From Naegleria gruberi (taxonomy: Eukaryota), in assembly GCA_000004985.1 (NCBI GenBank), contig GG738853.1: a DNA stretch of 64,000 bases; one strand, given 5' to 3'. The translations under genes and the position numbers were made by a program. The notes below the pieces were generated by a model. It saw only the letters and a program-made list of their open reading frames with translations. It did no database searches and was not told the origin of the DNA. Positions 37,989-46,195 of this stretch are shown here, one piece after another; the stretch's first letter is position 1; each line of letters opens with the position of its first letter.

Positions 37989-39545
37989 TTATTCAAAGTT
38001 AAAGTTGGTGTTGTTTTGTTGCATACCAGTAAACACGAATTGATTATTTTGTGTGGTTTGTGGTTCCTCATCATCATCATCAAGACCAAAGTATTCTTCT
38101 ACAATCTTGTATGCCTTCTTATAAATTTCTTCACTAGCGTGATCTGTCAAACTTTCAAGTTTATCAACACCTCCGGCTTCTTCAATAAAGTCTGTGTATG
38201 GATTGATACCATCAATATCATCAGCAATGCTTGAACCAGAAGCTAAAATATTTTCAATACCTTCCAAAGCAACGCCAACAACCTTGACATCCTTGACTGA
38301 GAGTAATTCGCAAAGTGGTTTAATACAACCTCTATCTACTAAATATCTTATTTGTTCATCTGAACCTCCTGATGTAGCGTTAGAAATAGCCCAAGCAGCT
38401 TCCTTCTTAACGTCAAAATCACCTGGTTGATCCAAGATTGCCACCAAAGGTGGAATAATATTAGCATCAATAATTGTTTGAATTTGATCCTTGTTTCCGG
38501 CAGTAATGTTAGAAATTGTCCAACAAGCTTCCTTCTTAATACTCTTCTTTTGATGTTGAAGAAGTTGACACAAAGATGGAAGAGCGCCACAATTCAAAAC
38601 GACTTGTGTTTGTTGATCATTACCAGTAACAATATTACCAATAGTTCTCAAGGCTGGTGTTTGAACGGATGGTTGTGGATGCATAAGTAATTCAACAAGT
38701 CTTCTAACAACATTTGAATCAATAACAGCTTGAATTCTATTGTTTGGACCGTCTGAGAGGTATGAAATTGCCCAACAAGCGTCAGTAAGAACTTCTTCGT
38801 CAGAGTTGTATAAGAGATGAGCCAAAGTTGGCAAGGCTGGAGCAACAAGATTAAAATCAGGGATTGGTTTACCTCTACAAAGGTTGGAAACAGTCCATGT
38901 AGCATTTCTGAGAATTGTAACTTTTGGTTGTTCAGAAATGATAGACAACAATGGAACCATAACTCCCATTTGTAAAATATAATCTCTACATTTAGCAGAA
39001 TCACCAGCAATATTACCCAAAGCCCAGATAGATTGTTCTCTAACATCATCATTTGGACATCCGAGAAGTTGAATAAAGATTGGAACAGCATTGCTTCTAA
39101 TGACTGTTTCAGTATGTTCGGAGGTACCTGAAGCAATGTTTGTGAGGGCCCAACAGGCTTCAAATTGGAGGGCAGCGTGGTCGACTCTTTGCAAAAATTC
39201 AACAAAGATTGGGACAACACCAGTAGAAATAACTTCATCGATAGGTGGACTCTTTTCCATGGACAAGAGTTTTCTGAATTGAACGGTAGCTTCTAATTGG
39301 AGTGTTGGATTACCAGACTTGACTTGTTCGAGAAGGAGTGGAAGTTGGTTAAGTTTTTCTTGGATGAGAGGATCGTGAATTGTTGCGCCTGTTGTGTTTT
39401 CCTTTCTTCTCTTTTGCAAGAGTTCATCTCTCATCTTCTTTCTGAGAGATGATTGTTTATCCATTCTCTTTATTTTACCATCTTCTGCGCTGAGTGTTGA
39501 CTTTAGGTTTTTTCTAGTTGGTGTCTTTTGATTGCTGGAGTACAT
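37989..39545 (-). CDS. KPNA: importin subunit alpha (karyopherin alpha), canonical form, single exon
   Basis: It has an N-terminal IBB domain ('RMDKQSSLRKKMRDELLQKRRKE') and ten armadillo repeats carrying the conserved Trp/Asn NLS-binding residues ('LQFEACWALTNIASG', 'EQSIWALGNIAGD', 'RNATWTVSNLCRG', 'TDACWAISYLSDG', 'KEACWTISNITAG', 'KEAAWAISNATSGG'). The C-terminus is acidic. Confidence 0.85.
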   Translation of the reverse strand: MYSSNQKTPTRKNLKSTLSAEDGKIKRMDKQSSLRKKMRDELLQKRRKENTTGATIHDPLIQEKLNQLPLLLEQVKSGNPTLQLEATVQFRKLLSMEKSPPIDEVISTGVVPIFVEFLQRVDHAALQFEACWALTNIASGTSEHTETVIRSNAVPIFIQLLGCPNDDVREQSIWALGNIAGDSAKCRDYILQMGVMVPLLSIISEQPKVTILRNATWTVSNLCRGKPIPDFNLVAPALPTLAHLLYNSDEEVLTDACWAISYLSDGPNNRIQAVIDSNVVRRLVELLMHPQPSVQTPALRTIGNIVTGNDQQTQVVLNCGALPSLCQLLQHQKKSIKKEACWTISNITAGNKDQIQTIIDANIIPPLVAILDQPGDFDVKKEAAWAISNATSGGSDEQIRYLVDRGCIKPLCELLSVKDVKVVGVALEGIENILASGSSIADDIDGINPYTDFIEEAGGVDKLESLTDHASEEIYKKAYKIVEEYFGLDDDDEEPQTTQNNQFVFTGMQQNNTNFNFE

Positions 39546-39844
39546 TCTTATTTACACTTGTTGAGTTATTTTTTTTCTTCGTGGAAATTATTTTTGAACA
39601 CGCGCCAAATGGTTTTTGAAGTTTTGTAAAGCATTCCGTCCAACAGTGGATTTTGTCTTGCCAAAAAGATTCTCGAGAGATGACAGCCAGAATAAAAGTA
39701 TTAATACATTTGTTTCACTGTACAATCTTTGAAATAAAGAATGATGGTCCAAAGTTTCAAAAAACAAATTGAATTAGGAACAACTGAATGTCATTTTGAA
39801 GGATATTGAGCTTTCTTTTAGAATGACCGTTAATAATTTAAAAA

Positions 39845-40927
39845 TTGATATTTATTGCCAATTACTTGAAAAAAATGAAAAATGAGCTAGAACCAAAGAG
39901 AAAAAAGATAAAACGAGAGTTTAGCTTGCCAAGTGAAATAATTATATTAATAATTGAATATTCGGCTTGCAACACCAAAATATTGACTAAATTTTCTTTA
40001 ATTAATAATCAATTTCATTCAATAATTTATGACAGCTCTTATGGATTGTGGGATCATTTACTTGTGAGATATCCCTTCCGAATGAATCCTCCGAATTTAT
40101 CAATTATTAAAAAAATATATTTCGATTTGGAGGAAGATGATGAAGTTGATGTAAAATTTACTAGAGTTCAAGAGTTTACTTTTAAAAATGATTCTAAGGA
40201 GTGTATTACATTGATTGTCAATTGTATCAATTCTGAACAAATATCCAAAGTTACATTCTTTGGAGAGACGAGACCAAGCCTTGTGAATTATTTAATAGAT
40301 CATTTCTCAAATCTTAGAGAGTTGGTACTGAATGATTTTGATTTCCAAGAGTGGGATGGGGAATATGATTTTTCTTTCAAACAAACCCCTTTGCTTGAAA
40401 GTTTTGTTTTTGTGGAGGAAACTGACGAATACTCTGGTTGCTACAACGAACCAAATGATACAAATTTCTTCTTTAATGTATTTACAAAGTATTCATTTAG
40501 CAATCTTCAAAAAATTTGGTTTGAACCATATTATTCTAATATTGAATTATTCAAGTTTGTGGAACAAATCAAACATCTCAATTCTCTAAAGCATTTGCAA
40601 GTGACATTATCCTTATGGGATTTTACACCAATTCCATCCTATGCAACTTTGCCACCATTGATTGAGGAAATTCAATTCAAATGTGCTTTTAAAGTATTTG
40701 CAAAATTCCTAATTGCTTACTTTAATCATCCAAAGGTTTACATTCAGTTTTCTCCCTCAGAACATTTCCTTGGAGATACAAGTATTCAGTTTATGACCAC
40801 TGATGAGCTTATTGAAGAATTGATAATGGATAAGGAAAGAAAAGAAGAGCTTAAAAGTTTGATTAATGAAAAAAGATATTTGGGAAAAATTGAATGTATG
40901 GATAAATCGTACAGTGGATCTGAATAA
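39845..40927 (+). CDS. F-box-like protein (hypothetical)
   Basis: The N-terminus has a basic stretch followed by 'FSLPSEIIILIIEYSACNTKILTKFSLINNQFHSIIYD', which resembles an F-box. The rest is unassigned. Confidence 0.4.
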   Translation: MIFIANYLKKMKNELEPKRKKIKREFSLPSEIIILIIEYSACNTKILTKFSLINNQFHSIIYDSSYGLWDHLLVRYPFRMNPPNLSIIKKIYFDLEEDDEVDVKFTRVQEFTFKNDSKECITLIVNCINSEQISKVTFFGETRPSLVNYLIDHFSNLRELVLNDFDFQEWDGEYDFSFKQTPLLESFVFVEETDEYSGCYNEPNDTNFFFNVFTKYSFSNLQKIWFEPYYSNIELFKFVEQIKHLNSLKHLQVTLSLWDFTPIPSYATLPPLIEEIQFKCAFKVFAKFLIAYFNHPKVYIQFSPSEHFLGDTSIQFMTTDELIEELIMDKERKEELKSLINEKRYLGKIECMDKSYSGSE

Positions 40928-44354: not shown

Positions 44355-44410
44355 GCCTTACATGGACAAAATTAAGTTTTTCTCCTTGTGAATTGTAAAT
44401 AAAACTAACT

Positions 44411-46195
44411 TTATTCTTCTTCAGCAGCAAAGAATTTTTCCAAAATGCCAACACAAGTTTCATAAATTTGGGTGTTTTGATGGTTTTGGAGATTTTCAAT
44501 TCTGTCAAGTCCTCCATATTCTTCAATAGCATTTGTAACAACGTCAAGAATATTTTGTCTTTCGGCTGAGTTCAATACAGCTTGAAGACCTTCCAAAGCA
44601 ACTTGGATAATCTTTTGGTCTCCAACTAAAAGACCATCACAAAATGGTCGAATCACTCCTTGATCAATAATATACTTAATTTGTTCATCTGTGCCCCCTT
44701 CACATGAATTGGCAAGTGCCCAATAGGCTTCTTTTGTTACATCAAACGATTCAGATCCAGAAACAAGAATTGAAATAATCTTTGGAATGATACCAGCATC
44801 GATAACCATTTGAATTTGATCTCTGGTACCTGCAGTAATGTTTGAAAGTGTCCACATTACTTCTTTTCTTATTGACTTCTTTGGGTGAGTGAGAAGGTTT
44901 GGTAAGTGATTAAGGAGACCACATCTCAAAACTGTTGATGTTTGGTAATCATCACCAGTGACTATATTACCAATTGCTCTTAATGCAGGACTAGAAAGTT
45001 ATTTGTTAATTGATATTTTCCATTGTGGATATAATACTTACGTTTGAATAGAAGAATTATGATGACTAAGTAACTCAATAAGTTTGTTTGTTGCTCCAAC
45101 TTCAATAATTGCTTGAATTCTGTCAGTAGGCCCATCAGATGCATATGAAATAGCCCAACAAGCATCAATCAAAACGTCATCATCTGAACTATGGAGGAGG
45201 TGAACAAGAACAGGAATAGCAGTTAAAACAATTTCCCAAGGTGGGGCTGGCTTTCCTCTGAATAAATTTGATAAGGTCCATGTGGCATCTCTCTTCACTC
45301 TGTCGCTTGTTTCTGATTGAATCATTTTTAAAACTTTTGGCATGGCTCCTTGGTTGAGAACTAAATCTCTCAAAGTGCATGAATCACCACTAATATTTCC
45401 CAAAGCCCAAACACTTTGTTGTCTCAAATCTTCACTTTCACTATCAAGGAGATTAATCATTCTAGGAATACAATCCAATTCGACTACATATCTGGTATGA
45501 TCTGCAGTACCTGAGGCAATATTTGTAATGGCCCAAGTTGCTTCAAATTGTAATTGATACAAGTTGGATACAGAAATTGATTTCTTGGTTGGATCGTGTG
45601 ACCAAACTTGTGGAGGAGGGGAGGAAGATCCAGAGTAATCCACATTAAAGTATTTGTGAACTTCATTCAAATCTAAATATTGTACAAAATATGGTACTGC
45701 TCCCGATAAAATAACTTCATCAATTGGAGGATTTCTTTCAATTGACAATAATCTTCTAAAACGTTGAGTGGTTTCAATAATAGCTGCAAAGTTATTCCAT
45801 TCCATATCTAAACTAGCAACAAGAATGGATAAATCACGAAGTTGACTAGAAATAGGTGGTCTCTTTCTTCTCTTGTCATATGATATTTTTGTAATCTTGT
45901 TCAAATTTTTAACAAAGTCACGAGATTTTTGCACTGCTGATTGAATTATATTTTCGGATTGTTGTTCAGATGATGATTCTTGAATAGATGGTAAAGGTTT
46001 TATGTTTGGTTCTATTCTTGGAGAGGAAGATCCCCAAACATCTCGTTTCTGTTCAGAGCAATAACTTTGTCTGACATTGGAAATTAATTTTTCTCTTTGT
46101 TGTACTTTGAGCATTCTTTGACGTAATAAAGTTGCTTGGATTTCATTCTTTCCAGATTTAGCATCCTGAATAACACTTGTTGGTGATTGGGACAT
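44411..46195 (-). CDS. importin-alpha-like armadillo protein, a divergent paralog; 2 exons, join(45042..46195, 44411..44990), about 577 aa
   Basis: ARM repeats carry the conserved W/N signatures ('LQFEATWAITNIASG', 'QQSVWALGNISGD', 'RDATWTLSNLFRG', 'IDACWAISYASDG', 'KEVMWTLSNITAG', 'KEAYWALANSCEGG'). A 51-nt intron (GTAAGT...TTCTAG) joins 'SSIQT|PALRAIGNIVTGDD'. Compared with the gene at 37989-39545, it has a long non-canonical N-terminus instead of a clear IBB domain, and an extra insert of about 35 aa in ARM2 ('DLNEVHKYFNVDYSGSSSPPPQVWSHDPTKKSISVSN'). Confidence 0.7.

Follow-up and report, generated by a model that had tools for sequence, protein, structure and literature searches.

Importin-alpha is the universal adaptor of classical nuclear import, and its importin-beta-binding (IBB) domain serves both as the handle for importin-beta and as an autoinhibitory switch. 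In protists, Tetrahymena is said to have several divergent IMA-like genes beside its canonical ones. Importin-alpha paralogues that have diverged or lack an IBB have been described before, and the current understanding is not overturned by the results presented here. In Drosophila, alphaKap4, alphaKap5, alphaKap2A-H and alphaKap6 are fast-evolving importin-alpha duplicates without an IBB that have kept their armadillo (ARM) repeats (PMC8645118); most of them are retrogenes with a truncated N-terminus, and specialised or importin-beta-independent roles have been proposed for them (PMC8645118). Apicomplexan importin-alpha has been described as having weakened or absent autoinhibition, with a diverged third basic cluster (SKR in Plasmodium, KKR in Toxoplasma) and a diverged hinge, both of which modulate it (bioRxiv 10.1101/2022.10.06.510747). 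The same preprint, summarising Kobe 1999 and Harreman 2003, gives KRR, the third of the basic clusters, as the autoinhibitory element, occupying the major site for nuclear localisation signals (NLSs) in cis. Here, we examined a 64,000-nucleotide stretch of the Naegleria gruberi genome (contig GG738853.1 of assembly GCA_000004985.1; the window), in which two importin-alpha genes, a canonical one (gene 1) and a divergent one (gene 2), lie on the minus strand about 5 kb apart, at the coordinates given by an earlier reading of the sequence alone (the original prediction; Table 1). Our results show that gene 2 belongs to a subfamily of several genes known so far only from Naegleria and Willaertia, that the ten-ARM superhelix and all residues of both NLS sites, the major and the minor, are preserved in gene 2, and that the ancestral IBB of gene 2 has been reshaped until it can no longer be recognised. 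This variant subfamily had not been described before, gene 2 itself already carrying a generic importin alpha annotation, and a literature search returned no paper that mentions the gene 2 accessions or importin-alpha paralogues in Naegleria.

Canonical importin-alpha (alpha1-like clade; for example rice importin-alpha1a, PDB 4B8J, yeast Srp1/Kap60 and mouse KPNA2, 1IAL) shares with gene 2 the ten-ARM superhelix, the same NLS-site residues, the Arm_3 domain and a KRR-type cluster before ARM1. Gene 2 differs from it in having no detectable IBB, in a 129-aa N-terminus with a different conserved helix that ends in a Cys, in a shorter hinge, in a hairpin added to ARM2, in clade-specific substitutions and in evolving about three times faster. 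The nearest precedents are the IBB-less copies of Drosophila and the apicomplexan proteins. The Drosophila copies resemble gene 2 in that they are also lineage-specific and fast-evolving, with ARM repeats and no recognisable IBB, but the Naegleria/Willaertia proteins have a longer N-terminus with motifs of its own and an insert in ARM2, and their genes contain 1-3 spliceosomal introns and are much older. Gene 2, with its longer N-terminus and its intron, thus shows neither the truncation nor the retroposition of the Drosophila-type duplicates. The apicomplexan proteins have a recognisable IBB and a longer hinge, unlike gene 2, which combines a strong KRRKR cluster with a shorter hinge and no IBB signature. 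The Tetrahymena genes would show a similar multiplicity within a protist lineage and probably represent a separate expansion.

To collect relatives of gene 2, 1.8 billion representatives were searched with a profile and the clusters of the matches were then looked up. The subfamily comprises seven full-length members from four species: gene 2 of N. gruberi (XP_002680609.1), P0002 (61% identity to gene 2) and P0124 of N. lovaniensis, P0125/P0270 of N. fowleri, and P0005 (56% identity to gene 2 by BLASTP), P0171 and P0166 of Willaertia magna. Three traits occur jointly in all seven, namely a basic helix with an invariant Cys, an RRK cluster located 36-39 aa before ARM1 and an ARM2 insert of more than 30 aa. 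A neighbour-joining (NJ) tree recovered the seven members as monophyletic with 100% bootstrap, grouping gene 2, P0002 and P0005 at 72%, and the monophyly is independently supported by the insert and the N-terminal motifs that the members have in common. Over the same species pairs, the divergence among gene 2 orthologues is about 2.9 times that of the canonical gene (distances of 0.49 vs 0.17 between N. gruberi and N. lovaniensis, and of 0.65 vs 0.22 between N. gruberi and W. magna). The profile search yielded no member from beyond these two genera, Naegleria and Willaertia, and Acrasis kona had only a canonical protein among the matches listed. A second N. gruberi member was found neither with P0124 as query nor with a profile of the N-terminus plus the insert, the searches returning only the Naegleria-like fragments P0376 and P0377.

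The cargo-binding core of gene 2 is well preserved. Pfam detects eight Arm matches and Arm_3, solved importin-alpha structures match the protein at E ~1e-124 in a PDB search, and its AlphaFold2 (AF2) model, built on an 83-sequence alignment with a mean predicted local distance difference test (pLDDT) score of 89, superposes on the crystal structures of rice, yeast, mouse and human importin-alpha with target-normalised template modelling (TM) scores of 0.92-0.95 and a root mean square deviation of ~2 A. The claim that gene 2 keeps the Trp/Asn (W/N) ladder for NLS binding was borne out by comparison with 24 canonical sequences: the ladder is complete (W221/N225, W263/N267, W306/N310, R389/N393, W431/N435 and W475/N479), and the acidic or polar contacts D271, E428, S434 and E472 are also the same as in those sequences. 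We take the W/N positions to belong to the major (ARM2-4) and the minor (ARM6-8) NLS sites, after the assignments reported by Conti 1998 and Fontes 2000. Across the seven members of the subfamily, the W/N positions of ARM2-4 and ARM6-8, D271 and E428 are invariant, and exceptions are few (P0270 has S for G229 and D for E472, and P0002 has a gap at W347 of ARM5). That the ladder and the contact residues are identical to the canonical ones speaks strongly for retained NLS-peptide binding and against pseudogenisation, and the gene 2 protein has most likely kept the ability to bind basic peptides of the NLS type, at the major site as well as at the minor one. Gene 2 also has clade-specific changes at six positions that are invariant in at least 90% of canonical sequences (E259Q, N303D, C312F, F320W, S478A and S482E), two of which shift the charge beside the major site.

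As for the gap in ARM5, the deposited N. lovaniensis model P0002 (C9374_007800, L001 10001-12138) reads 'LVDTVSYASDGP' where all its relatives have 'L.DACWA.SYxSDGP', and is left without the ARM5 Trp. The third intron of this model, of ~112 nt, borders the spot where the Trp is missing, and for that reason its splice site was probably mis-set.

The original prediction also stated that the IBB region of gene 2 is replaced by a Ser/Gln-rich N-terminus, and composition, Pfam, profile searches and profile alignments all agree with it. Residues 1-129 contain 17% Ser and 11% Gln (canonical N-termini have ~84 aa), and they are laid out as a long basic helix, a variable low-complexity spacer of ~60 aa and the RRK(R) cluster. 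Pfam did not match an IBB in gene 2 at E<=10 or in the six other members at E<=1, while the same scan was readily positive in P0260 and P0268, a pair of divergent importins not related to the subfamily. An in-house hidden Markov model (HMM) built from 93 canonical IBBs and run with --max ranked the real N-termini of the subfamily no better than 1,600 shuffled decoys, and hhalign comparisons of 3- and 7-member profiles against the IBB gave P values of ~0.04-0.05 and a probability of ~1%, the segment aligned changing with the profile. A match of a proper IBB profile to this N-terminus had been named as an outcome that would refute the prediction, but no IBB was returned by Pfam, the in-house HMM or hhalign. 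Since the shuffled controls were never beaten and the hhalign runs disagree on the segment, we make no statement on IBB homology.

What the N-terminus does contain is a conserved helix. The AF2 model shows residues 13-49 as one long helix, with a pLDDT of ~90 for residues 21-40, and the helix has the family consensus 'K-V-x-x-R-E/D-x-x-L-x-x-x-R/K-x-x-Y/H-C'; R34 and C46, together with R110 and K111, are the sole invariant residues of the pre-ARM region (1-124) across the seven members. This helix could be a diverged IBB core that still binds importin-beta, separated by the ~60-aa spacer from KRRKR, in which case gene 2 would encode an ordinary, importin-beta-dependent adaptor with an altered cargo range. 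The subfamily is nested within importin-alpha and hence had an ancestor with an IBB, the helix resembles the IBB helix of gene 1 (residues 20-49, pLDDT 71-83, in a model with an overall pLDDT of 90.4) and reaches a pLDDT of up to 90, and the net charge of the N-terminus is +9 in both gene 1 and gene 2. The 7-member hhalign run even lays 'LLRQRMLKVQQREKLISNVRQ' on the 'RRRRE..ELRK.KREE.L.KRR' core of the IBB, but this match has P=0.049 and a probability of 1%, the fraction of K+R in the N-terminus is 0.14-0.19 in the subfamily vs 0.21-0.26 in canonical proteins, and neither the shuffled decoys nor the Pfam scan, which finds the IBB of P0260 and P0268 with ease, speaks for a hidden IBB in any of the seven. 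We therefore regard a cryptic IBB as a tentative and rather unlikely explanation.

The basic cluster of the gene 2 N-terminus had been described as weak, a description that our comparison does not support. R110 and K111 are invariant in 7/7 members (consensus '[Y]-x-x-R-R-K-(R)-x-P'), the distance from the cluster to the 'FRRLLS' motif of ARM1 is nearly fixed (36-39 aa in 7/7 members, 36 in gene 2), and BLASTP pairs the KRRK(R) segment in gene 2 with KRRK(E) in gene 1, where it forms the third of the basic clusters. In canonical proteins the same spacing has a median of 52 and a range of 39-84 (n=90); in the heterolobosean canonical proteins it is 44-45. The best-conserved element of the N-terminus occupies the position of the autoinhibitory KRR, and the suggestion that gene 2 is not autoinhibited by an IBB is doubtful because the cluster aligns with KRRK of gene 1, which corresponds to the autoinhibitory element of canonical importin-alpha. 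Fixed spacing amid free sequence drift is what would be expected of a segment that docks in cis, and for this reason we think that autoinhibition is more likely to have been retained than lost.

The same cluster is also compatible with a monopartite classical NLS, and gene 2 could then be a specialist independent of importin-beta, which crosses the pore alone or is itself imported as a cargo of the canonical alpha/beta pair through KRRKR, and which acts in the nucleus, where it might sequester or chaperone proteins with an NLS while Naegleria goes through its closed mitosis, like the IBB-less testis importins of Drosophila. No IBB was detected in any member of the subfamily, fast evolution and lineage-specific expansion are typical of specialised paralogues, and IBB-less paralogues are thought to work without importin-beta (PMC8645118). 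An NLS acting in trans, however, has no need of a cluster held 36-39 aa from ARM1, and the subfamily has kept a conserved basic helix upstream of it, so that we consider such a specialist decidedly improbable.

The other distinctive feature of gene 2 is found in ARM2. Between helices H2 and H3 of this repeat there are 39 residues in gene 2 vs 6 in gene 1, a net gain of 33, and the insert of about 35 aa proposed originally is genuine and coding. It occurs at one site in 7/7 members, with a variable centre and kept flanks ('E-[LIV]-x-K-[YH]-[FY]' and '[KR]-x-x-[IV]-x-x-x-x-[IVL]-[YH]-x-L-Q-F-E'), and it is exonic in N. gruberi, N. lovaniensis and W. magna, whose intron positions otherwise all differ. 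In the AF2 model it folds into a short helix and a beta-hairpin (strands 183-186 and 205-208) with a pLDDT of 84-97. It had been noted that the insert might turn out to be an unspliced intron, though with no GT..AG pair of compatible phase in sight; four in-phase pairs do exist in this region, with the donors GTACCA, GTACAA, GTTCAC and GTGGAT, but none is credible as an intron. The donors are unlike the GTAAGT/GTATGT in use and none of the pairs allows a clean excision, and given such poor donors, the exonic state in three genomes and the common site in seven members, the unspliced intron was rejected.

These GT..AG pairs, the high evolutionary rate and the low-complexity N-terminus are also what could suggest a decaying duplicate or an annotation artefact, that is, an incipient pseudogene whose insert is an unspliced intron. 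Yet all four species (N. gruberi, N. lovaniensis, N. fowleri and W. magna) have an intact ORF, the groove residues are invariant save for the gene-model gap of P0002 and the two substitutions of P0270, and seven proteins carry the insert in frame at one site with kept flanks, where AF2 folds it confidently. Decay or artefact is scarcely credible, and gene 2 as a pseudogene was rejected on the NLS-groove residues, which are intact across the subfamily.

Inserts in the ARM2 loop are not restricted to this subfamily. P0260 and P0268, which belong to unknown protists and come from Logan/Tara assemblies, contain an IBB, long hinges and inserts of their own of ~18-20 aa in the same loop. Because these unrelated, shorter inserts are found there, the H2-H3 loop of ARM2 can be said to tolerate insertions, and it appears to be a recurrent insertion site. 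Both proteins were considered as intermediates towards gene 2 and rejected, since they have 36-39% identity to it and join it with a bootstrap of 24-59%, probably through long-branch attraction.

By the geometry of ARM repeats, the H2-H3 loop of ARM2 lies where the major groove ends at ARM1-2. We lean, if only slightly, towards a reading in which the gene 2 product works as an NLS receptor, its major site gated in cis by the RRK(R) cluster and its ARM2 hairpin tuning the choice of cargo or docking the N-terminal module. The intact ORF in four species, taken as a sign of purifying selection, favours a working protein. The groove would bind basic NLS-type peptides; the RRK(R) cluster would most likely fill the groove of the major site in cis, like KRR in a canonical IBB, leaving the protein probably autoinhibited rather than constitutively open; and the hairpin would probably alter cargo selectivity or contact the new N-terminal module. 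Several observations weigh against this reading. The KRRKR segment has a pLDDT of only 50-70 in the AF2 model, the hinge of gene 2 is below all but the shortest of the 90 canonical ones and could prevent binding in cis, and KRRKR would serve equally well as an ordinary NLS, with the gene 2 protein itself as the cargo. The high pLDDT of the hairpin depends on three homologues in the alignment, the NJ trees are based on simple distances, so that long-branch attraction may inflate the support for monophyly, and a search for an RNA-derived contig of gene 2 found none, its exon-1 ORF matching only genomic metagenome contigs.

A further step would be to see the subfamily as a distinct class of receptors derived from importin-alpha, in which the IBB was swapped for a module of basic helix and Cys, the ARM2 hairpin was added, importin-beta is dispensed with and the RRK cluster is a built-in switch. 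We think this unlikely, but, if true, the protein might be an intranuclear NLS-binding factor or a carrier dedicated to closed mitosis or to the switch from amoeba to flagellate. This ancient and conserved subfamily retains its cargo grooves together with a KRR-type cluster, sheds the rest of the IBB and gains a folded element next to the major groove, which makes it a natural experiment that uncouples cargo binding, autoinhibition and carrier binding. It does so outside the opisthokonts and plants, where nearly all work on importin-alpha sits. Naegleria fowleri, a lethal human pathogen, has a member of the subfamily, and a lineage-specific transport factor could be of practical interest.

Table 1. 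Positions, within the 64,000-nucleotide window, of the two importin-alpha genes, their parts and the ORFs between them.
Feature	Position	Strand	Basis or remark
Gene 1, canonical importin-alpha, 518 aa, single exon, intronless	37989-39545	minus	ORF; Pfam IBB, eight Arm matches and Arm_3
Gene 1 IBB domain, residues 14-87	39285-39506	minus	Pfam PF01749, E=3.7e-9
Gene 1 third basic cluster KRRK, residues 45-48, inside the IBB	39413-39402	minus	
Intervening ORF	39845-40927	plus	
Intervening ORF	41265-42008	plus	
Intervening ORF, Zn_protease-like / RimB-like, 148 aa	42120-42566	plus	Pfam PF05618, E=5e-9
Intervening ORF, dual-specificity phosphatase	42569-43276	minus	Pfam DSPc
Intervening ORF	43368-44354	plus	
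Gene 2, divergent importin-alpha, 577 aa, two exons	44411-46195	minus	
Gene 2 exon 1, codons 1-384 and two bases of codon 385	45042-46195	minus	
Gene 2 intron, 51 nt, GTAAGT...TTCTAG, phase 2	44991-45041	minus	Spliced product is XP_002680609.1
Gene 2 exon 2 to stop, ARM6-ARM10 and Arm_3, short acidic end 'AAEEE'	44411-44990	minus	
Gene 2 N-terminal region, residues 1-129, Ser/Gln-rich	45809-46195	minus	No IBB detected
Gene 2 conserved basic helix, residues 13-49, ending in the invariant Cys46	46049-46159	minus	AF2, family alignment
Gene 2 KRRKR basic cluster, residues 108-112 (KRRKRP 108-113)	45860-45874	minus	Candidate autoinhibitory or NLS-like segment
Gene 2 ARM2 H2-H3 insert, residues 176-213 (38 residues), net +33 aa	45557-45670	minus	Alignment, AF2

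The 577-aa product of gene 2 is a 100% match to XP_002680609.1 / EFC47865.1 / UniProt D2V5W1, 'importin alpha [Naegleria gruberi]', and has 46% identity to the gene 1 protein over 483 aa (BLASTP). Removal of the intron joins '...NSSIQT' to 'PALRAIGNIVTG...', and the joined sequence fits gene 1 exactly there. The intron said to have been gained by gene 2 is genuine, and its site is empty in the N. lovaniensis and W. magna orthologues. The three orthologues have 1 (N. gruberi), 3 (N. lovaniensis) and 3 (W. magna) introns, at seven positions of which none is common to any two. As the position is unique among the three orthologues compared, parsimony favours an intron gained within the lineage of N. 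gruberi, and the pattern as a whole suggests rapid, lineage-specific intron turnover in the orthologues of gene 2.

The unspliced exon-1 ORF of gene 2 also exists as P0001, with 100% identity, on two metagenome contigs, L003 and L004. They correspond to about 41500-46900 of the window and come from a sample labelled metagenome (ENA ERZ929261 / run ERR1078381, PRJEB11402). The gene calls beside this ORF have the same domains as its neighbours in the window, and the calls of the intervening ORFs recur on L003. The identity of the ORF and the domains of its neighbours indicate that N. gruberi or a near-identical strain was present in the ERR1078381 sample.

Gene 1 was described at the outset as a textbook importin-alpha with IBB, ARM repeats, acidic tail and no introns, and its ORF and Pfam matches confirm the description. 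Its product is identical (100% match) to the GenBank 'predicted protein [Naegleria gruberi]' (P0060), and it ends in the acidic tail 'LDDDDEE'. Between the two genes there are five ORFs of 148-360 aa unrelated to importin, rather than the four genes counted before, and 2/5 have Pfam support.

The pair had been explained as an old local duplication. Its age is well founded, since the two genes split before the divergence of Naegleria and Willaertia, but its local origin is plausible and unproven, the orthologues being unlinked elsewhere. In both N. lovaniensis and W. magna, the canonical orthologue and the divergent one were found on separate contigs, and their neighbours are unrelated. In the NJ tree the subfamily stands on a long branch without a supported sister and is not sister to the heterolobosean canonical clade, and its identity to the heterolobosean canonical proteins (45-49%) is no closer than to those of other eukaryotes. 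A tblastx comparison of the 64-kb window with the canonical locus of N. lovaniensis found one common gene, coding for a TYW2/TRM5-like methyltransferase (window 12680-13789; L002 8027-9429; 74% protein identity), and the window had nothing in common with the divergent loci of N. lovaniensis or W. magna by tblastx. The methyltransferase gene lies directly upstream of the canonical importin-alpha gene in N. lovaniensis, and 24 kb away from it, in inverted relative orientation, in N. gruberi, which we read as loose microsynteny with rearrangement. With one common neighbour, at the canonical locus only, synteny as proof of a tandem origin was rejected. The N. gruberi genome has ~41 Mb, and we estimate the probability that two importin-alpha genes would lie ~5 kb apart in it by chance to be of the order of 1e-4 to 1e-3. 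Because chance proximity is this improbable, the linkage in N. gruberi is suggestive of a tandem origin, though no proof of it, and a relic of an ancestral tandem duplication is somewhat more likely than a secondary juxtaposition.

The stop codon of gene 2 is separated by 56 bp (window 44355-44410) from the stop of the convergent ORF at 43368-44354, and a gap of this size between stops means that the 3' untranslated regions of the two either overlap or are extremely short. The Zn_protease/RimB-like ORF stops 2 bp short of the stop-codon end of the convergent phosphatase ORF. Its PF05618 domain ('putative ATP-dependent zinc protease' / RimB-like) is mostly bacterial, and a horizontal acquisition of this ORF is possible. 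Directly before gene 1 in the window, an uninterrupted plus-strand ORF of 4,214 aa (25007-37651) codes for a homologue of hydin, a flagellar central-pair protein, with 12 HYDIN/CFA65/VesB-like Ig domains and domains of the CFAP65/CFAP74/ASH/MSP type, and is notable as an intronless gene of 12.6 kb.

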